The translations under genes were made by a program, and so were the position numbers. A stretch of 64,000 nucleotides of DNA from Vicinamibacterales bacterium (GTDB lineage: Bacteria; Acidobacteriota; Vicinamibacteria; Vicinamibacterales; UBA8438), in contig OZ241896.1 of NCBI GenBank assembly GCA_965203565.1, positions 41,707-105,706 of the forward strand, in the 5' to 3' direction. Under the pieces are notes generated by a model. It searched no databases, had not been told where the DNA came from, and was given only the letters and a program-made list of their open reading frames with translations. Within the stretch, counting starts at the first letter, position 1. Every line of letters begins with the position of its first letter. Positions 33,827 to 51,139 of this stretch are shown here, in pieces.

Positions 33827-35824
33827 ATGCAGTTCGCCGCGAAGCGTCCGGCGCGGCGGCGCCGGCTTCTGTTTGCGTTCCCCGCAGGCATTGCGGGCGT
33901 CGCCCTCCTGGGAACGCTCCTGATCCTGCTTCGCGAACTGAATTGGGGCGTCGGCCTGTGGTTCGATTCGCTCAGCTACCTGTTGCGCGCACGACGGATG
34001 CTGGCGGGCCCCGGCTGGCTGGTCAGCATCTCCGGCACACAAGCTCCTTTCTATCCGCTCCTGCTGGCGCTGCTGGGAACGTCGGGATTCGATCTGGTCC
34101 GCATCGCCGGGCTCGTGAACGCCGCGGCGTTCGGCCTGACGATTCTGGTCTCGGCCCTGTGGCTGAAGAACAGGCTCGAATCCCGCCTGATCGTCCTGTG
34201 GGCGGCCGCCGCCATCATGCTGTCGGTCCCGCTCACGAACTTGGCGTCGCAGGTGATGTCCGAGCCGGTATGCATCCTGTTCACGGTGCTTGCCCTGATG
34301 CGGGCGGAGAAGTTCCTGAGATCCGGACATTCCGGCGAGCGTTCGTCGTTGGTGTGGGCGGCGTTGTTTTCCGCGCTCGCTTTTCTGACGCGTTACATCG
34401 GCGGCGCCGTCGTTCCCGTCGTCGCAGCGCTGCTTCTGATCCGCAAGGGCGCGAGCCTCACGGAAAAGACGCGGCAGGCCGCGATCTACTCGGCCATTTC
34501 CATCGCGCCGACCGGTCTTTGGCTGTTGCGCAACTTCCTGTTGTCGGGATCGCTCACGTGGGATGCATCCACGCTCTACCGTCCGCGCACGGGGTTGCCG
34601 CAAAACCTGGTCTGGACGTTCGAGGCGCTTGCCGGCTGGATCTTTCCCCTGTCGCGGTCCGGCGAATCCGCGGCGCCGATGCTGTGCCTCCTGTCCGCGG
34701 CCGCGGCGGGATGCCTGCTGCGCCTGTCGGGTTCGGAGTCCGGGTCCGCCGGCGGGGCCGCGGCTCGATCCGGCCGGATATTCCTGCTCTTTTCGTCGGC
34801 CTACGTCGTCCTGCTCGTCGCATCCGGGTTCGTCGTGGAGATCGAAAGCGGAAATTTCAGCAGGTATCTCTCGCAAGTCTACGTCCCGATGGTCATCGCC
34901 GCGGCGCTTGCCGCGGACCGGCTGCTGACCCGCGCCGGTCGTCCGCTCTCGGCGCGACGCGGGATTCCACCACGGGCCGTGAAGCCCGCCGGCGCCGTCC
35001 TGATCGCATCGATGCTCCTCTGGCTGCACTACCCGGCCATGGAAAACGCCCGAGCGGCGGCCACGCACTTCACCCGCGGTTTCGGGTATGCATCCGAGCG
35101 CTGGCGCCATCACGACGTGCTGGAATACCTCGCGAGGAATCCGGTGGACGACCCGGTCCACACCAACCTGTTCGAACTGGCGGAATTTCATACCGGCCTT
35201 CGAACCAGGATGATGCGAGTGCGGTTTCAACTGGACGAGGCGCTGAACGGGCCGCCGGCCTTCATCGTCTACTTCCGGGAAACGCGGTCGGAGGATCTCG
35301 CGCCGCTCATCGAGAGTCTGCCGGAGGTGGAGACGAAGTTTCGCGGCCGCGACGGGGCCGTCTACCACTTCGCGCTGCGCGGGCGGCGCAGCCTGGACCA
35401 GATAGTCGGGGAGTCCGAGCCGATCATCCGCTCCGGCCGCTACGCCGTCCATCTCGACGAAGACCGGTTGGTGTACGTGCGGAATGCGCCCGACAGAGGC
35501 GACGACGCCGGCCTCCGGTTCTTCCTGCACGTCGTCCCGGCGCAGACGGAGAACCTGCACTGGGCGAGGCGGTGGCTCGGGCGCCGGCAATTCGATTGGG
35601 GAGAGTCCTGCGCCTGGCGAAGCGGCGGGAGATGCGCGGTGGTGGTCGGGCTGCCGAAGTACGACGTCGCATCGATCACGACCGGTCAATACCGGGCGGG
35701 GCCGAACCGGGAGTATGGAGACCTGACGTACGGCCGTTCGGCGAAGGTCGTCTGGAACTTCATCACCACCGGTCGATTCGCTCTCGAGGACCGCGTATGG
35801 GAAGGCGAATACCGTTTTCCCTGA
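33827..35824 (+). CDS. GT-C/ArnT-like polytopic membrane protein with soluble C-terminal domain
   Basis: 665-aa ORF with about 10 or more hydrophobic helices in the first 400 aa. The C-terminal domain carries RFFLHVVP...LP.YDVASITTGQY, shared with ORF 47002..49011. It is visibly lower in GC than its neighbours. Confidence 0.7.
   Translation: MQFAAKRPARRRRLLFAFPAGIAGVALLGTLLILLRELNWGVGLWFDSLSYLLRARRMLAGPGWLVSISGTQAPFYPLLLALLGTSGFDLVRIAGLVNAAAFGLTILVSALWLKNRLESRLIVLWAAAAIMLSVPLTNLASQVMSEPVCILFTVLALMRAEKFLRSGHSGERSSLVWAALFSALAFLTRYIGGAVVPVVAALLLIRKGASLTEKTRQAAIYSAISIAPTGLWLLRNFLLSGSLTWDASTLYRPRTGLPQNLVWTFEALAGWIFPLSRSGESAAPMLCLLSAAAAGCLLRLSGSESGSAGGAAARSGRIFLLFSSAYVVLLVASGFVVEIESGNFSRYLSQVYVPMVIAAALAADRLLTRAGRPLSARRGIPPRAVKPAGAVLIASMLLWLHYPAMENARAAATHFTRGFGYASERWRHHDVLEYLARNPVDDPVHTNLFELAEFHTGLRTRMMRVRFQLDEALNGPPAFIVYFRETRSEDLAPLIESLPEVETKFRGRDGAVYHFALRGRRSLDQIVGESEPIIRSGRYAVHLDEDRLVYVRNAPDRGDDAGLRFFLHVVPAQTENLHWARRWLGRRQFDWGESCAWRSGGRCAVVVGLPKYDVASITTGQYRAGPNREYGDLTYGRSAKVVWNFITTGRFALEDRVWEGEYRFP
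34943..34977 (+). repeat. 35-nt relic of the MITE right arm embedded in-frame in a CDS
   Basis: CCGCTCTCGGCGCGACGCGGGATTCCACCACGGGC matches the last 36 nt (minus the terminal TG) of the repeat with one 1-nt deletion. It is translated as LSARRGIPPRA in a predicted loop. Confidence 0.7.
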
Positions 35825-41156: not shown

Positions 41157-42530
41157 TCAGGACTCCGCCGGCGCGCGGAACCGGATGTTCGGCGTGAACG
41201 TCCAGGAATGGGCCGGCCGGTAGATCCCGGCGTCCTTCGTGCGCGACTTCACGCGGAAGGTGTACAGCAGGCGGTGGTAGTCGTACGGCGCGCCGTCATG
41301 GCGGTGGGCGGCGACGTCGAGCTTGTACGTCCCCTCCACCAGGTCGAGGCGGTCGATGGTGAACACGACCTCGCCGGCGCCGGCCATCGTCTCCGGCGTC
41401 ATCCGCTCGATGTCGGTGTTGGTGCCGTAGCAGCAGACCCCTTCGGCGTTGAAGATGCTGACGCCGAAGACGAAGTCGGTCACCGCGGCCGGGGCGGCGA
41501 CCCGCATCCGGACCGCCATCCGTGCGCCGGACGGGAACAGGTGGGCCGGCCCGTCGTCCCCCTCCAGCGCGACCGCCTCTATCGTGACCGGCCCGTCGCC
41601 CCACCGCCCCGGCGCCGCCCGGAACATGTCGGCCTGCTGATCGGCGGGGGCCTGCGCCGCGGCGCCGGGGATCGCGGCGCCGGGAGCCGCGCCGCCGGAG
41701 GCCGCGCCGGCGCCGTCCCCCTTCCGGGCCGCCTCCTGCATGCGCCGGTCGCTCGCGGCCAGCGTCCGCTCCTCCGCCTTCTCCACCTGGCTCACGTACG
41801 CCTGCACCACCCGCCGCGGGTCGCCGAGGGCCCGTTCGGCCCCTCGGTCGATCCAGAGCGCCTCGTCGCAGAAACGCTCCACCATCCCCAGCCCGTGAGT
41901 GACCAGGACGATCGTCTTCCCCCGGCGCTTGTACTCGGCGAACTTGTCGAGGCACTTCAGGCTGAACGCCTCGTCGCCGACCGCCAGCACCTCGTCGACC
42001 AGCAGGACGTCGGGGTCCACGTGCACCGCGACGGCGAACCCGAGCCGCATGTACATCCCGGACGAGTACGTCTTGACGGGAGCATCGATGAACGCCTCCA
42101 GCTCGGCGAACTCGACGATCTCGTCGAAGCGGCGCGCGATCTCCCGCTTCGTCAGCCCAAGCATCACCCCGTTGACGAAGACGTTCTCGCGACCCGATAT
42201 CTCCGGGTGGAAACCGGCGCCGAGCTCGATCAGGGCCGAGATCCGCCCCGATATCCGGACGCGGCCGGAGGTCGGCTTCGTGATGCCGGCGATCAGCTTC
42301 AGCGTGGTGCTCTTGCCCGAACCGTTTCGGCCGATGACGCCGAACGCGCAGCCGGCGGGAACGGCGAGCGACAGCCGGTCGACCGCCAGGAACGTCTCCT
42401 CGGGGCCGAGGCCGCCCGCCAGGCTCCCCTTCAGGATGGCGCTCTTGAGCGTGGCGAACCGCCGCCGGTGGGCGTAACGGCGGTACACCTTCGAGACTTC
42501 CTCGAACTCGACGGCGACGGCGGCGCTCAT
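41157..42530 (-). CDS. wzt: polysaccharide/O-antigen ABC exporter ATP-binding protein with Wzt_C-like domain
   Basis: The start at 42528-42530 (MSAAVAVEFEEVSK) overlaps wzm by 4 nt. It has Walker A GRNGSGKST, signature YSSGMYMRLGFA and Walker B LLVDEVLAVGD. The C-terminal beta-rich domain ends YTFRV. Confidence 0.85.
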   Translation of the reverse strand: MSAAVAVEFEEVSKVYRRYAHRRRFATLKSAILKGSLAGGLGPEETFLAVDRLSLAVPAGCAFGVIGRNGSGKSTTLKLIAGITKPTSGRVRISGRISALIELGAGFHPEISGRENVFVNGVMLGLTKREIARRFDEIVEFAELEAFIDAPVKTYSSGMYMRLGFAVAVHVDPDVLLVDEVLAVGDEAFSLKCLDKFAEYKRRGKTIVLVTHGLGMVERFCDEALWIDRGAERALGDPRRVVQAYVSQVEKAEERTLAASDRRMQEAARKGDGAGAASGGAAPGAAIPGAAAQAPADQQADMFRAAPGRWGDGPVTIEAVALEGDDGPAHLFPSGARMAVRMRVAAPAAVTDFVFGVSIFNAEGVCCYGTNTDIERMTPETMAGAGEVVFTIDRLDLVEGTYKLDVAAHRHDGAPYDYHRLLYTFRVKSRTKDAGIYRPAHSWTFTPNIRFRAPAES

Positions 42531-43336
42531 ACCTCCTCCGCGAACGAGTCGCGCAGCCGGTCGAACAGCGCGTAGCCGAGCGCCATCAGCGCCACCGACA
42601 GCGCCGCGAGCGCGAGGAGCCACTTCCAGTGTCCGAACGGCCCGTCGTAGAACAGGATCTCCTGGTACGAGATGGCGAGGTGCGCGAACGGGTTCAGGTC
42701 CATGAAGACCTTCCCGCCCGGCGGGATCATCGACATCGGGTAGATGATCGGCGTCGAGAAGAACCAGAGCGTCAGGAGGTTGCCCAGCAGGTCGCGGATG
42801 TCCCGGAAATGGACGGTCAGCGCCGACAGGACCAGGCCGAGCCCCAGCGTCAGCAGCAGCTGCACGGCGATCACCACCGGTATCCAGGCCAGCTCGGCCG
42901 CGCGCAGCGGACCGGGCAGCTCGCCGATGGCGGCGTAGAACGCGAGGAACCCGCCCAGCACCGGCAGCGCGAAGAAGAAGTGGAACATGTTCGCGAGCAC
43001 CGAGACTATCGGAAGGATCTCGGCCGGGAACATCACCTTCTTGATCAGGTTCCCGTTGGCGATCAGCACGTTCGACGTTTCGAGCAGCGACGACGAGAAC
43101 CAGGTCCACGGGAGCAGCCCGCAGAAGAGGAACAGCGCGTACGGCTCCAGGTCGGCCCGGAAGCCGGGCAGGATCACCGAGAAGACGAACGAATAGACCA
43201 GCAGCAGCAGCAGCGGGTTGGCGAACGACCAGAAGAACCCGAGGATCGACCCGCGGTAGCGCGCCTTCAGCTCGCGGACGACGAGCGTCCGGACGAGGCC
43301 GCGGCACCGGAGAAGCTGCCGGAGGTTAGCCAGCAT
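42527..43336 (-). CDS. wzm: ABC-2 type exporter permease
   Basis: 269-aa ORF. The N-terminus is LVVRELKARYRGSILGFFWSF, followed by six hydrophobic helices. Confidence 0.85.
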   Translation of the reverse strand: MLANLRQLLRCRGLVRTLVVRELKARYRGSILGFFWSFANPLLLLLVYSFVFSVILPGFRADLEPYALFLFCGLLPWTWFSSSLLETSNVLIANGNLIKKVMFPAEILPIVSVLANMFHFFFALPVLGGFLAFYAAIGELPGPLRAAELAWIPVVIAVQLLLTLGLGLVLSALTVHFRDIRDLLGNLLTLWFFSTPIIYPMSMIPPGGKVFMDLNPFAHLAISYQEILFYDGPFGHWKWLLALAALSVALMALGYALFDRLRDSFAEEV

Positions 43337-44102
43337 CGACGTCGATCATGACCACGGTGACGTTGTCCGGTCCGCCGCGCGCGTTGACCAGCCGCACCAG
43401 CTCGTCGCACGCCGCCTGCCGGTCTGCGCGCCCCGATGCGACGTCGCCGATTTCCGGGTCCGGCAGCACCGACGAGAGGCCGTCGGAGCAGAGGAGCAGG
43501 CGGTCGCCCGGCCGGAGCGCCAGGTCCTCCGCGTCCGCTTCCACCCCCGGCTCGCCGGTGAGCGCCCGCGTGACGAAGTGGCGCCACGGATGCGCGCGCG
43601 CGGCGGTCTCCGTCATCCGTCCCTCCCGCACCTGGTCCTCCACCCACGAGTGGTCGCGCGTGAGACGGGTCAGGCCGCCCGCTCGGCACAGGTACGCCCG
43701 GCTGTCGCCTACGTGGGCGAGCGCGCCGCCCGGGTCGGCCGTCAGCACCGCCACGGCGGTCGTCGCCATCCCGCGCAGCTCCGCCGCGGCCGCCGCGCGA
43801 TCCGCTATCCGCCGATTCGCCCGGTCGAAGCCGGCGCGCAGCCGGTTGCCCCCCCGGCCGAGCGCCGCATCGAACGGGACGGGCCATGCGTCGTCAGCGC
43901 CGAGCGCCGCCGTCGCCTCCACCACCCCGGAGATCGCCTCCACTGCGAGCTGCGCCGCCACCTCGCCGGCCGCATGTCCGCCCATCCCGTCGGCCACCAC
44001 GAACAGCCCCAGCTCCGGGCGTGCGCAGTAGCAATCTTCGTTGTGGGAGCGGCGGCGGCCGACGTCGGTGCGGGCGGCCCAGGATGCGTGCATCGATCTC
44101 AT
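43326..44102 (-). CDS. PP2C-family Ser/Thr phosphatase
   Basis: RTDVGRRRSHNEDCY...FVVADGMGGHAAGEVA...LCSDGLS...GGPDNVTVVMIDV. The stop overlaps the wzm start by 11 nt. The remainder of the 798-aa ORF is shadow. Confidence 0.85.
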   Translation of the reverse strand: MRSMHASWAARTDVGRRRSHNEDCYCARPELGLFVVADGMGGHAAGEVAAQLAVEAISGVVEATAALGADDAWPVPFDAALGRGGNRLRAGFDRANRRIADRAAAAAELRGMATTAVAVLTADPGGALAHVGDSRAYLCRAGGLTRLTRDHSWVEDQVREGRMTETAARAHPWRHFVTRALTGEPGVEADAEDLALRPGDRLLLCSDGLSSVLPDPEIGDVASGRADRQAACDELVRLVNARGGPDNVTVVMIDVDAG

Positions 44103-44164: not shown

Positions 44165-44599
44165 CTACAGTCCCGCCCGCGGCCGCACCCGGACCTTCGA
44201 CGCCACCTGCAACCGGACGAGCGACTTGAGGAGCGCGATGCGGGCCCGTTCGAAGTCGACGTCGACGGCGCGCGTTTCGAGGCGTTCGCGCGCGCGGCGC
44301 TCGGCCGCCCTCGCGCGGTCCACGTCTATCGTCTCGGCGCGTTCGGCGATCCGCGCCAGGACCGTGACGCGGTCCGGAAGGATCTCGGCGAACCCGAACG
44401 CCACCGAGGCGAACAGCCGCTCCTCGCCCTGCCGGAACCAGAGCTCGCCGACCCGGAGCGCCGTCACCAGCGGCGTATGCCCCGGCAGCACGCCGAGGAA
44501 CCCTTCTGCTCCCGGGATCTGAACCTCGTCCACCGACTCGTGGACCATCGAGCGATCGGGCGTGACCAGCTCGAACCGGAGTGACGACGGAAGCGCCAT
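44165..44599 (-). CDS. atpC: F1 ATP synthase epsilon subunit
   Basis: 144 aa. LRFELVTPDRSMVHESVDEVQIPGAEGFLGVLPGHTPL is a typical epsilon N-terminus. Confidence 0.9.
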   Translation of the reverse strand: MALPSSLRFELVTPDRSMVHESVDEVQIPGAEGFLGVLPGHTPLVTALRVGELWFRQGEERLFASVAFGFAEILPDRVTVLARIAERAETIDVDRARAAERRARERLETRAVDVDFERARIALLKSLVRLQVASKVRVRPRAGL

Positions 44600-46121: not shown

Positions 46122-46138
46122 CAGCCCGCCACGGGCTG
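46122..46138. repeat. 17-bp mini-hairpin made of the fused tips of the MITE terminal repeats
   Basis: CAGCCCG-CCA-CGGGCTG equals the first 7 nt plus the last 10 nt of the repeat. It directly abuts the atpG stop codon (CTA at 46139-46141). Confidence 0.6.
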
Positions 46139-47017
46139 CTACAGCGCCTCGGCGCCCGACACCACCTCGATCAGCTCGTGCGTGATGGCGGCCTGCCGCA
46201 CCTTGTTCATGTGCAGCGTCAGCCCGTCGATCATCTCGCCCGCGTTCCGGGTGGCCGCGTCCATCGCCGTCATCCGCGACGCATGCTCGGCCGCCGCCGA
46301 CTCCAGCAGCGCGTGGAAAAGCTGCGTCTCGACGTAGCGGGGCAGCAGGTCGGCGAAGATCCGTTCCGGGGACGGCTCGAACAGATAGTCGGCCGGCGCC
46401 GCTTCCGCCGCGTCTTCCGGCGCCTCGATCGGCGGGACCGGCAGCACCTGGTCGATCGTCACCTTCTGCTGCAGCACGCTCTTGAACTCGTTGTAGAGGA
46501 CCGCGACTTCGGAGACCTCGCCCGACTCGTACTGCGCAACGGCCGTCTCGGCCATCGCCTCGGCATGGGCGTACCGGAGGTCGCCGAACAGGTTCACCAG
46601 CTCGAACCGGACGTCGGCGCCGGCCCAGCGGCGGGTGAAGAAGTCACGCCCCTTGCGCCCGACCAGGCCGAGCGCGACCTCACGGCCGGCGGCGGTGGCG
46701 GCGAAGCCGGCCGCGCGGCGGATCAGCGCGGAGTTGAAGCTGCCGCACAGCCCCTTGTCGGCCGTCACGACGAACAGCAGGATCGGCGCGTCGGGCGACG
46801 ACGGCGGCGCGAGGAGCGGATGCCCGGCGGCCGACCCGCCGCGGGCCGCGAGGCCGCTCAGCATCCGCTGCATCCGCTCGGCGAACGGCCGCGCGCCGAC
46901 TATCCGGTCCTGCGCGCGGCGCAGCTTCGAGGCGGCGACCGTCTTCATCGCCTTCGTGATCTGCTCCGTCGACTTGACGGCCCGGATCCGGCGCCGGAGG
47001 TCTATGAGAGACGGCAT
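46139..47017 (-). CDS. atpG: F1 ATP synthase gamma subunit
   Basis: 292 aa. MPSLIDLRRRIRAVKSTEQITKAMKTVAASKLRRAQ is the canonical gamma N-terminus. Confidence 0.95.
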   Translation of the reverse strand: MPSLIDLRRRIRAVKSTEQITKAMKTVAASKLRRAQDRIVGARPFAERMQRMLSGLAARGGSAAGHPLLAPPSSPDAPILLFVVTADKGLCGSFNSALIRRAAGFAATAAGREVALGLVGRKGRDFFTRRWAGADVRFELVNLFGDLRYAHAEAMAETAVAQYESGEVSEVAVLYNEFKSVLQQKVTIDQVLPVPPIEAPEDAAEAAPADYLFEPSPERIFADLLPRYVETQLFHALLESAAAEHASRMTAMDAATRNAGEMIDGLTLHMNKVRQAAITHELIEVVSGAEAL

Positions 47018-49011
47018 TGGCGATCACTCGGCGAGAAGCTGCCCGCCCAGACTTGTTCGTACCCTTCCCGACGCCCCACGAACTGTCCGGTGCGGATGCT
47101 GGCGATGCCGTAATCGGGCAGAGAACGCACGGCGTAGCATTTGCCGTCCCGCCGCCAGAAGTGCAGGTGACCGAAGTCCCGGTTCTCGAATCCGTGCCGT
47201 CGCCTGTCTGCGGGAAGATCGTTCGCATCGACAGGGTGCACGTGCAGGAAGAATCTCGGCCAGCCCTGCAGGTCCATCGCCGCCGGGCACTCGCGGCGGA
47301 GATAAAGCAGCTCCCCCCCTCCCCCCCTCTCGTTCCTGAAGAAGTGGACGTCGTAGTCAGGAGACTGCAGAACGGGGCGTTGCGCGTCCGCGCGCCGCTC
47401 GTATCGAGTCAGAGCGGCTTCGTAAACGCTGCTGTCGTAGAGAAACGACGACCGGTTGTCAGGAGTCAGGGAACGCACGCCTGCGAGCCGATCACCCAGG
47501 ACGAAATCGGCGAGATGCCTCTTGTTCAAGTCCGTCTTCACGACGCCCCTGGAATAGTAGTACAGACGCGTCAGGACAGTGACCGTCTTTCCTTCCGCCA
47601 GATTCCAGATGGCGTCGGAGTCGGCCGCCCTCATCCTTTCGAGCTCCGCGAGTTCCGGGTCGTGGGTGGTCCGGGCCATGAGGAAGCACGACAGCACGAA
47701 AGTCGCCGCCGCCGCGAGCACCGTGACGCGGCGGCGAACGCCCGGCCGGCCAGGACGCGGCAGCGTCAGTGCGAACAGCACGAGCGGGACGCCAGTATAG
47801 AACATGCCATTGAATTCGTGCCCGCCAAATCTGACCGTCTCGCGCATGATTATCGCCCAGCACGGTCCGGACAGCGCGAGCGCCGCCAGCGGAAGGCGGC
47901 AGCGGACAGTCGGCCGAACCACCAGGACCAGCGTCGTCAACACCGCCAGCACGGACACGGCGACGAGACTCGGCGTCCCGTACCGACGCGCCACGGGAGT
48001 CTCGCCGACGTCGACGACGAAGCGGCTGACGGCGTAAGGGACCGACGCCAGCCCGATGCGGCTGAACTGCTGCTCGGCGAAGCCCGGCCAGTTGAACGCG
48101 CCGCCACGCGATACGACGCTGGTGCGATAGAGCGCCGACTGCACCGAAGGCAGCTCCGCCAGCGGCGTCTCGCCGCCGAGCGCCGCATGCTCCCGCGCGA
48201 CGTTCGTCCCCAGCACCACCGACCCGAACAGCACCGCAACCACCCCCAGCGTCAGGCAGCGGCGGGCGGCGAGACCGTCCCCGCGGCGCCACGCCGACGC
48301 CAGACCGAGCGCCACGAACGGACCGACCAGCGCATAGACCTTCCAGTCCAGCAGCAGCGCCCCGCACGTCTTCGCCACCAGCTGCCCATACCGCCCTTCG
48401 GTCGCGAACACCGCCATGCCGTGAAAGACCAGCAGCAGGCCGAACAGGCCGACGGCCCCCTCCGTCGCGACCATGTCGGCGAAGTAGAGGGCGTGGAACG
48501 ACGAGAACGCCAGCAGCGTGGCCGCCAGCGCCGTCCAGGGGTCGCGCACCAGCCGGCGCAGGGCGAGCCAGGCGAGCGCCGCCGCGGCGGCATGCAGCGC
48601 CAGCATCAGCAGCCGCGCGGCGCGCAACCGGGCCCACGCATCGTCCGCGAACGGCAGCGTGACGAGCTTGATCAGCAGGTGTCCGAGCACGGGGAAGCGG
48701 TTGTACGGCACGTAGCGGCGGCGGCCTTCGTCGTCCAGCCGCTGCGCGTAGAAACCGAGAAAACGGTGCTCCGGCGACAGGCTCTCGGCCACCAGCATGT
48801 TGTTCCACGTGATCCCGAGTTCCGAACCGGAGGTCCACCGGTCGGGGTCGCTGCCGAGAAGCAGCGCCGCCGCCAGCGCCAGCAGCAGGACGAGCGCCGG
48901 CGCCGCCGAACGCGGCGTCACGGCGCCGGCGCCGGCCGGAGCGGGAGACCGGGGCCGCGGGCCGGCGCTTTCGACAGGAGATCGCTGCGGCGGAGAGTCG
49001 GGGTTCAGCAA
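47002..49011 (-). CDS. GT-C-like polytopic membrane protein inserted between atpA and atpG (paralog of 33827..35824)
   Basis: 669-aa ORF with many hydrophobic helices. The C-terminal domain PRFFLHVHP...LPDYGIASIRTGQF aligns to RFFLHVVP...LPKYDVASITTGQY of the other copy. The stop overlaps the atpG start by 16 nt. Its 3-prime half is visibly lower in GC. Confidence 0.7.
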   Translation of the reverse strand: MLNPDSPPQRSPVESAGPRPRSPAPAGAGAVTPRSAAPALVLLLALAAALLLGSDPDRWTSGSELGITWNNMLVAESLSPEHRFLGFYAQRLDDEGRRRYVPYNRFPVLGHLLIKLVTLPFADDAWARLRAARLLMLALHAAAAALAWLALRRLVRDPWTALAATLLAFSSFHALYFADMVATEGAVGLFGLLLVFHGMAVFATEGRYGQLVAKTCGALLLDWKVYALVGPFVALGLASAWRRGDGLAARRCLTLGVVAVLFGSVVLGTNVAREHAALGGETPLAELPSVQSALYRTSVVSRGGAFNWPGFAEQQFSRIGLASVPYAVSRFVVDVGETPVARRYGTPSLVAVSVLAVLTTLVLVVRPTVRCRLPLAALALSGPCWAIIMRETVRFGGHEFNGMFYTGVPLVLFALTLPRPGRPGVRRRVTVLAAAATFVLSCFLMARTTHDPELAELERMRAADSDAIWNLAEGKTVTVLTRLYYYSRGVVKTDLNKRHLADFVLGDRLAGVRSLTPDNRSSFLYDSSVYEAALTRYERRADAQRPVLQSPDYDVHFFRNERGGGGELLYLRRECPAAMDLQGWPRFFLHVHPVDANDLPADRRRHGFENRDFGHLHFWRRDGKCYAVRSLPDYGIASIRTGQFVGRREGYEQVWAGSFSPSDRQCRLS

Positions 49012-49023
49012 GAGATGGCTACG

Positions 49024-49038
49024 CAGCCCGTGGTGAAA
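49024..49038 (+). repeat. solo MITE left terminal repeat (15 nt)
   Basis: CAGCCCGTGGTGAAA is identical to the first 15 nt of copy 5. It lies 3 nt from the atpA stop codon (49042-49044). Confidence 0.55.
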
Positions 49039-49041
49039 CGC

Positions 49042-50571
<1,530 letters not shown>

Positions 50572-50584
50572 GCCTCGACTCCGT

Positions 50585-51139
50585 TCACCCCGCCGCGCCG
50601 CCGAGCAGCCGCTCCCGCAGCCGCGCGAGATGCCGCGCAACGCTGCCGTCCCACACCGTGCTCCCGATCCGGGCGACCACGCCGCCGATCACCTCGGGGT
50701 CCACTTCGGTCTCCACGGTGACCTGCCTGCCGGTGGCCGCTTCGAGCCTCCGGGCGATCTCCTGCATACGGCCGTCCGGGAGCGGCGACGCCGTGGTGAT
50801 CCGCGCGCGGACCTCGCCGCGGAGCTCCATCAGCCGCTCGCGGTAGACGTCGAGGATCTCGGGCAGCAGCGAGAGCCGGTCGTGCTCCGCCAGCAGGTTC
50901 AACAGCCGCCCGGTGATCGGCGACAGGTCGCCGGCGCGCTCGAGGAGGGCGGCCACCACGGCCCGCTTCGGGGCGGGCGGCACGGACGGCCCGAGGAGAC
51001 TCTTGCGCAGCAAGGGATGCTCGTCCAGCAGACCGGCGAACGCCGACGCCTCGCGCTCGACGCGTTCGAGCGCGCCTTCCTGCTCGCAAACGTCAAGGAG
51101 AGCACGTGCGTACCGCCGGGCGGCCGCGCGATTCGCCAT
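50585..51139 (-). CDS. atpH: F1 ATP synthase delta (OSCP) subunit
   Basis: 184 aa. The N-terminus is [12 protein letters not shown], and the C-terminus [17 protein letters not shown] is typical of OSCP. Confidence 0.85.

Follow-up and report, generated by a model that had tools for sequence, protein, structure and literature searches.

The window analysed here is a stretch of 64,000 nucleotides from a bacterium of the order Vicinamibacterales (Acidobacteriota; contig OZ241896.1 of assembly GCA_965203565.1, positions 41,707 to 105,706), and it contains the operon for the F1 part of the ATP synthase. Between atpA (alpha) and atpG (gamma) of this operon lies a gene of about 2 kb for a polytopic membrane protein, called the insert from here on. 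Our comparisons confirm that this insertion is real, unusual and specific to one lineage. The insert is a member of a family with a predicted glycosyltransferase fold of the C type (GT-C) in an operon position without precedent, and the operon around it is a mosaic, since its atpG appears to have been replaced from another genus. Coordinates are window positions unless marked as genome positions, and all atp genes and the insert lie on the minus strand. The genome, G000, is closed and comprises 3.95 Mb with a guanine-cytosine (GC) content of 71%.

The insert was found in 12 independent assemblies, all of one narrow Vicinamibacterales lineage. Three of them (G000, L017 and L018) contain the full span from atpA to atpG, and the other nine begin within the insert. 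L017 and L018 are metagenome contigs from different samples; both show the gene order gidB/parAB-atpH-atpA-insert-atpG-atpD-atpC, with an insert 95% identical to that of G000. The other nine are contigs of a sister sublineage (L022-L028, L134, L135) with 95–96% identity to G000 in atpG, 98.6% in atpD and 84–90% in the insert. Position 1 of every one of these nine contigs lies inside the insert, from where the sequence runs on into atpG. Such breaks evidently fit a repeated gene family that disrupts short-read assembly.

Outside this lineage the two atp genes are neighbours. No gene was found between atpA and atpG in 28 GTDB relatives, 13 of them from the same genus, in which the gaps mostly measured 7–86 nt and at most 192 nt, nor in 56 further loci from Acidobacteriota and other sources, with gaps of up to 436 nt. 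In relatives of the same genus, atpG follows 3 nt past the atpA stop codon (TAG-GCG-ATG). This operon comparison bears out a previous interpretation from the DNA letters alone, the sequence-only reading, which had called the insertion unusual. Searches of the literature, full text included, brought up no account of a gene in this position and no work on the glycosyltransferases of this lineage. In a pattern scan of a genome collection with the insert protein, 45 stretches matched, none of which was a relative; the closest kin of the insert occur only in metagenomes. The next closest homologues have 82% and 79% identity and stand in unrelated gene contexts. In a tree of the subfamily, the copies in atp context formed one clade (Shimodaira–Hasegawa-like approximate likelihood ratio support 99) nested among the lineage's own paralogues. 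Its topology therefore indicates a single insertion of an in-house paralogue, which would be older than the split of the two sublineages.

The locus is composed as follows.

50585-51139, minus: atpH (delta/OSCP), first gene of the F1 operon (Pfam OSCP, E 8e-46)
49042-50571, minus: atpA (alpha), gene call of 509 aa, longest open reading frame (ORF) reaching to 50640 (Pfam ATP-synt_ab_N, ATP-synt_ab, ATP-synt_ab_C)
49024-49039, no strand: solo 16-nt terminus of a 159-bp miniature inverted-repeat transposable element (MITE), 2 nt from the atpA stop codon
48922-49023, minus: leader or spacer upstream of the coding sequence (CDS) of the insert, containing the alternative TTG start at 49011
47002-48921, minus: insert, predicted 639-aa GT-C-fold membrane glycosyltransferase, subfamily A of an expanded family (AlphaFold2 model, Foldseek, paralogue homology)
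47605-48921, minus: membrane (GT-C) module of the insert, residues 1–440, a helical bundle in the AlphaFold2 model
47005-47604, minus: C-terminal soluble domain of the insert, predicted beta-rich, residues 440–639 (separate domain model)
47002-47017, minus: 16-nt overlap of the insert end with the atpG start
46139-47017, minus: atpG (gamma), putative xenologous copy (Pfam, identity, tree)
46122-46138, no strand: 17-nt relic of a mini-MITE with fused ends, directly past the atpG stop codon
44621-46081, minus: atpD (beta) (Pfam)
44165-44599, minus: atpC (epsilon) (Pfam)
33827-35824, plus: 665-aa membrane protein with only the C-terminal module in common with the insert (BLASTP)

Assignment of the genes by Pfam agrees with the order atpH-atpA-[639/669-aa ORF]-atpG-atpD-atpC as it had been read from the letters. 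For the insert, two start codons have to be considered. Read from a TTG at 49011, 30 nt past the atpA stop, the ORF spans 47002-49011, and this is where its start had been placed before. A TTG indeed stands there; a GTG at 48921, 120 nt past atpA, which yields 639 aa, is nevertheless the more likely start. Database gene calls adopt it, the homology of the insert DNA to most paralogues starts at about 48905-48917, and the TTG extension is disrupted in L017, where local indels of -16 and +1 change the frame so that it is not conserved as protein. At its other end, the TAG of the insert (47004-47002) falls 16 nt within atpG, whose ATG is at 47017; this overlap, also reported by the sequence-only reading, is seen directly in the sequence. 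The insert is co-directional with the atp genes and overlaps atpG, and a scan for promoter and terminator motifs inside the operon yielded none. Neither Rfam nor RNA folding of both junctions and the leader gave a hit or an unusual fold. We infer that the insert is probably co-transcribed with the atp genes, translated and coupled to atpG. The genome contains only one F1 gene set. The Fo a-subunit gene atpB, rightly said to be missing from the window, was located at genome position 3,799,034, about 3.7 Mb from the F1 operon.

The gene next to the insert, atpG, has a history of its own. Identity to genomes of the same genus exceeded identity to G018, a member of another genus, for atpH (66–78% versus 53%), atpA (89–91% versus 84%), atpD (92–94% versus 90.5%) and atpC (76–81% versus 63%). 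The same-genus relatives with which atpH groups are 77–78% identical to it. For atpG, in contrast, identity was 68–71% to the same genus and 81% to G018, and the same-genus genomes share 81–93% among themselves. In the atpG tree the lineage was nested in a clade of G018, G022, G019 and G020 (support 98/94), and placing it with its own genus cost 51.7 log-likelihood units and was rejected by the approximately unbiased (AU) test (p 6e-4). A concatenate of atpH, atpA, atpD and atpC placed G000 inside its genus (100/100), and the AU test rejected the alternative (p 1.5e-66); the identity matrix was already known when the groups for both AU tests were named. According to these sequence comparisons atpG is a xenologue, whereas atpH, atpA, atpD and atpC follow the species tree. 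With atpG replaced from another genus, the operon would hence be a mosaic.

The borders of the foreign tract can be traced to some extent. All 40-aa windows of atpA, its 3' end included, were closer to the same genus, save one conserved window that was tied. Sliding windows gave the G018-clade signal over all of atpG, none in atpA and, in atpD, a signal confined to the first 20–40 codons. Length and a 3' motif of the spacer between atpG and atpD are similar to those in the G018 clade, which is suggestive, and the replaced tract probably includes this spacer and the first atpD codons. The sample series that yielded the insert also contains contigs of the G018 clade, in which nothing interrupts atpA-atpG; one of them shares the sample ERZ23496367 with an insert-bearing contig. 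Directly downstream of atpC, at 41157-44093 on the minus strand, we observed a PP2C phosphatase gene and those of an ABC exporter of the Wzm/Wzt type (ABC2_membrane, ABC_tran and Wzt_C), followed by mfd. This neighbourhood is also conserved in the donor-like clade and is therefore older than the insertion.

At both outer edges of the segment formed by insert and atpG lie short remnants of a mobile repeat, the 159-bp MITE with 163 full copies in the genome. The 15-mer CAGCCCGTGGTGAAA has 80 genomic occurrences, 79 of them being MITE ends and the 80th being 49024-49038. At the left junction, the atpA stop is followed by 2 nt, by 16 nt matching the MITE terminus, and then by roughly 100 nt that partly resemble a paralogue leader: within the 120-nt spacer, nt 41–86 are similar to the leader sequence of a paralogue, the one at genome 2,788,162-2,790,036 (86% over 49 nt, E 1e-7). 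The relic at 49024-49039 is also present in L017 and L018. Past the other edge, the sister lineage has a 68-nt mini-MITE with both termini directly after the atpG stop (e.g., L022:2184-2251), which in G000, L017 and L018 has collapsed to the 17 nt at 46122-46138, so that we see a deletion series of one element. In G000 this 17-mer is a palindrome and unique in the genome. As in known MITE copies at stop codons, the relics carry terminal sequence and stand 0–2 nt from stop codons, but they are reduced to 16–17 nt. Judged by these matches, both relics are genuine, as the sequence-only reading had recognised for 49024-49038 and 46122-46138, and mobile repeats apparently visited both borders. That reading also saw in them a hint of how the region was remodelled. 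Remodelled it was, and the relics are there; they do not, however, explain the remodelling, and neither was shown to be a recombination joint or the cause of the rearrangement. We do not credit the MITE with it, because the downstream relic is an ordinary insertion close to a stop codon, the foreign tract appears to pass it, and the paralogues of the insert mostly have no MITE next to them.

At the right junction of the insert, the paralogue homology stops about 8 nt ahead of the atpG ATG, and the last five codons and the stop of the insert are for this reason read from the 5' end of atpG in another frame. Four indel variants of this insert/atpG junction (window 47002-47025) were observed, namely the 16-nt overlap, TAATG, taa+3 nt+ATG and taa+7 nt+ATG, the latter three in the sister contigs L022-L028, L134 and L135. 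This small indel hot spot always leaves stop and start near each other: in all four variants the stop of the insert stays between -16 and +7 nt from the atpG ATG. No evident Shine-Dalgarno motif of its own was found for atpG.

For the protein, an AlphaFold2 model based on a 54-sequence alignment reached a predicted local distance difference test score (pLDDT) of 85.1 and a predicted template modelling score (pTM) of 0.85. In a Foldseek comparison of this model with the PDB, the top 29 matches, and 33 of the top 34, were GT-C-fold membrane proteins with probabilities of 0.98–1.0, among them STT3/PglB/AglB, ALG9, DPY19, ArnT, PMT, AftD, PimE and the non-catalytic PIG-U. Probability was 1.0 both for ArnT (PDB 5f15; template modelling (TM) scores 0.49/0.56) and for ALG9/GT22 (PF03901; TM 0.42/0.48). 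The model thus assigns the insert to the GT-C-fold membrane proteins, and the structure check upholds what the sequence-only reading had proposed from the letters. At the sequence level, a family profile gave no match to PDB chains, and hits to PF03901 (ALG9-like) were weak and below threshold in 10 of the 54 family members (best E 0.0028). The insert retains all 67 invariant residues of the 54-sequence alignment. The loop that follows helix 1 has conserved acidic and His positions, which may recall GT-C enzymes: E51 is shared by 90% or more of the family and H52 by all of it; D149 is invariant as well. Its predicted function would be lipid-carrier-dependent sugar transfer at the outer face of the inner membrane.

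The membrane part is followed by a soluble domain, an arrangement shared with PglB and ArnT. Modelled alone, this C-terminal domain (residues 440–639) was beta-rich with a pLDDT of 88.7, and a Foldseek search with it returned only generic Ig/FnIII/CBM-like sandwiches (E at least 0.01, TM 0.2–0.3). Two cysteines in the domain are invariant in the 54-sequence alignment, which would fit an extracytoplasmic location. The beta-module might bind the acceptor or a glycan. The C-terminal end of the domain, a module of about 95 aa (window 47005-47320; FFLHV...LP.Y..ASI.TGQ), was also seen in 1604 representative proteins at E<=1e-3 and has no Pfam entry. It often comes as 2–10 tandem copies (the set P0264-P0410 among the carriers), and in one case, P0264, it comes after a Wzy_C O-antigen-ligase domain.

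In G000 the insert is one of about 46 genes of roughly 660–700 aa that share its C-terminal domain and together make up about 2.4% of the genome. Grouped by their membrane part, 10 are of the insert type and 28 of an array type, with several further groups of one or two. Most of the approximately 46 genes stand in tandem arrays (genome 360093-368054, 713284-727728, 1049223-1055223, 1417990-1435984, 2120397-2131942, 3711150-3725345 and others). Among 40 relatives the C-terminal module was found in only 2 genomes and the membrane module in none; in the same genus, such genes are nearly absent from the relatives. The membrane modules of the three subfamilies showed no significant similarity in hhalign; for that of the insert, E was 0.15 with the array subfamily and 0.59 with the subfamily of the ORF at 33827-35824, both with a probability below 1%. 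The latter ORF had been taken for a paralogue of the insert with the same N-terminal part. What stands of this is the shared C-terminus of some 120 aa (37% identity over the C-terminal 123 aa, E 5e-14, BLASTP, residues 509–622); the common N-terminal part was dropped, because the hhalign comparison of the membrane modules was not significant, and with it went the insert as a full-length paralogue of this ORF. There is weak indication that the membrane modules lean to different GT-C families, i.e., ALG9/GT22 for the family of the insert and PMT for the ORF at 33827-35824, which has a weak PMT hit (E 0.005).

Elsewhere in G000 we observed decayed copies of the insert subfamily, namely an internally deleted remnant at genome 1357331-1357614, of which only 41 nt at the 5' end and ~130 nt at the 3' end are kept, and a paralogue split into two ORFs at genome 3719357-3721304. 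On two related contigs (L019:397-4195 and L021:3495-9092), paralogues of the insert stand beside sulfotransferases, 2OG-Fe(II) oxygenases, a TPR protein and an asparagine-synthase-like enzyme. This gene company hints at a context of glycan or peptide modification for the family, and its approximately 46 genes probably serve to diversify the cell envelope.

The insert evolves differently from the atp genes around it. In each of the 12 assemblies its ORF has stayed intact, with proteins that diverge by up to about 14%, and the ratio of nonsynonymous to synonymous differences (pN/pS) was 0.33–0.66 in eight of eight comparisons (four orthologues, each with membrane and soluble part), lowest in the soluble domain. 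Synonymous divergence (dS) of G000 from the 95% identical contigs was 0.05 for the insert and 0.004–0.011 for atpG and atpD, and the differences were patchy. All 10 variants specific to L018 at CDS positions 456–541 equal the allele of the paralogue p3719, and variants of L017 at CDS 747–750 equal the paralogue p3820. From these tracts it follows that the copy embedded in the atp operon undergoes gene conversion with copies megabases away, which explains why its dS lies 5–10 times above that of the flanking atp genes. DNA homology of the insert to its paralogues amounts to 82–85% from about 48917 to 47022. GC content is 0.62–0.65 at 47000-47800 versus about 0.70, and GC at third codon positions (GC3) is 0.95–0.965 in atpA, atpG and atpD, 0.895 in the membrane part of the insert and 0.75 in its soluble domain, so that the lower GC content of the 3' half, already visible to the sequence-only reading, was found again.

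We assume, with a probability of about 0.68, that a paralogue was inserted in this one lineage into what is now a mosaic operon, where it is transcribed from the atp promoter, translationally coupled to gamma and active in the envelope. In the ancestor of the lineage, a copy of a family-A GT-C gene would have been spliced into the tiny atpA/atpG spacer, and the same branch would have seen atpG swapped for the copy of another genus living in the same samples. The insert would be transcribed from the atp promoter within atpH-atpA-insert-atpG-atpD-atpC and translated at a modest rate, and ribosomes finishing it would re-initiate on atpG. Its product would decorate the envelope, as the paralogues presumably do, and would not serve the ATP synthase. 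The insert might then be retained both because it still works and because it is the upstream translation partner of an essential gene. Several observations weigh against this reading. In the sister lineage the atpA/insert junction lies beyond all nine contigs, which break inside the insert. Neither Pfam nor NCBIfam matched the insert, so that no curated glycosyltransferase family claims it by sequence. Among the genomes found, none carried one of the two changes alone, so that insertion and atpG replacement may have come in either order or as a single event. Purifying selection on the insert is weak, marginally significant per comparison (p 0.001–0.2) and confounded by gene conversion. Finally, GC3 of the soluble domain (0.75) falls short of the 5th percentile of the genome and of the paralogue values, and this could reflect relaxed constraint.

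Could the arrangement have come about in another way? A misjoining of a repeated gene into the atp operon during assembly would be in line with the high copy number of the family and with nine metagenome contigs that break in the insert. Nonetheless, a closed genome and two contigs from different samples span atpA-insert-atpG, nine more assemblies show the joint of insert and atpG, and the joints carry lineage-specific variants, so that we regard an artefact as practically negligible. A biological alternative is a joint arrival, in which a single cassette bounded by the two relics, either imported or mobilised by the MITE, would have brought in both the insert and the foreign atpG. The relics do sit at the outer edges of exactly these two genes, both changes fall on the same branch with no intermediate found, and full MITE copies abound. 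But the sampled genomes of the G018 clade have neither a gene between atpA and atpG nor the family of the insert, whose nearest kin are the lineage's own paralogues, mostly without an adjacent MITE. Furthermore, the relic at the atpG/atpD border derives from a complete two-ended mini-MITE after the stop codon, and foreign-like sequence continues past it. A joint arrival hence seems quite improbable to us.

A different question is what keeps the insert in place. It might be a passenger, i.e., a paralogue retained only since it delivers translation to atpG and no clean deletion has arisen, with a protein that is decaying or irrelevant. Its pN/pS is high for a gene in a housekeeping operon, GC3 of its 3' part is low, its divergence is 5–10 times that of the genes around it, its border with atpG is prone to indels, and family members have decayed elsewhere in the genome (the split paralogue and the internally deleted remnant). 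Against decay speak the intact ORF in all 12 assemblies, the 67 of 67 family-invariant residues kept, and a pN/pS below 1 in all comparisons and lowest in the soluble domain; moreover, gene conversion accounts for much of the extra divergence. A mere passenger is therefore conceivable, though in our view unlikely. Conversely, the insert could have been co-opted for biogenesis or expression of the ATP synthase, either as a throttle of gamma toward the 3:1 alpha:gamma ratio or as a tether of the F1 mRNA to the membrane near Fo. Translation of the polytopic insert would in this case tether the mRNA and/or set ribosome arrival at atpG, which would make it a cis-acting regulator. Such a role would go well with its position exactly between alpha and gamma, the tight stop/start spacing in four junction variants, an atpG without its own Shine-Dalgarno-like motif, the split of F1 and Fo operons, and an arrangement that is stable across two sublineages. 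However, the insert has no homology to ATP-synthase accessory proteins in Pfam or NCBIfam, it is confined to one narrow lineage while 84 other genomes do without it, and it still recombines with ordinary paralogues elsewhere. We consider both the co-option and this cis-acting role very improbable. As a subunit or accessory protein of the enzyme it also finds no backing, with no Pfam match to ATP-synthase families and no counterpart between atpA and atpG in the 84 others. Nothing links the insert protein to the ATP synthase itself, and a role as throttle or tether is a possibility that stays unsupported.

Lineage-specific insertion of an envelope gene, our preferred reading, can be set beside what is known of such operons. 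Extra genes such as atpI, coding for small membrane proteins, are found at the 5' end of F-type ATPase operons. The insert likewise is a membrane-protein gene inside an atp operon; however, it has no homology to these genes, is placed between alpha and gamma and not at the operon head, measures 640 aa, is restricted to a lineage and belongs to a predicted glycosyltransferase family. From the known GT-C families it differs in that it matches no curated family and has a different, unannotated C-terminal beta-module, and further in that about 46 genes carry this module in a single 3.95-Mb genome, one of them inside the F1 operon. Mosaic operons have reportedly been described by Omelchenko et al. 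(Genome Biol 4:R55, 2003) as the outcome of xenologous gene displacement in situ. In our case, too, the phylogeny of atpG conflicts with that of its neighbours while its position is kept. Here, however, the displaced gene codes for the central rotor subunit of a co-adapted complex and stands beside an unrelated 2-kb insertion at its upstream border.

What is known of the ATP synthase itself is left unchanged by these findings. If the co-option were true after all, a glycosyltransferase gene would at the same time regulate in cis the supply of the rotor subunit, in an organism with Fo and F1 genes far apart. For the family, our analysis flags a GT-C group and a beta-module of about 95 aa that are both unannotated. 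The order atpHAGDC is among the most conserved in bacteria, and gamma is the rotor of a tightly co-adapted machine. One branch nonetheless appears to have tolerated two changes, an unrelated gene of 2 kb set between alpha and gamma, and the replacement of gamma alone by a copy from another genus. This lineage may therefore serve as a natural experiment on the disruption of an essential, stoichiometry-sensitive operon, and it bears on whether single subunits of a complex can be exchanged across genera.

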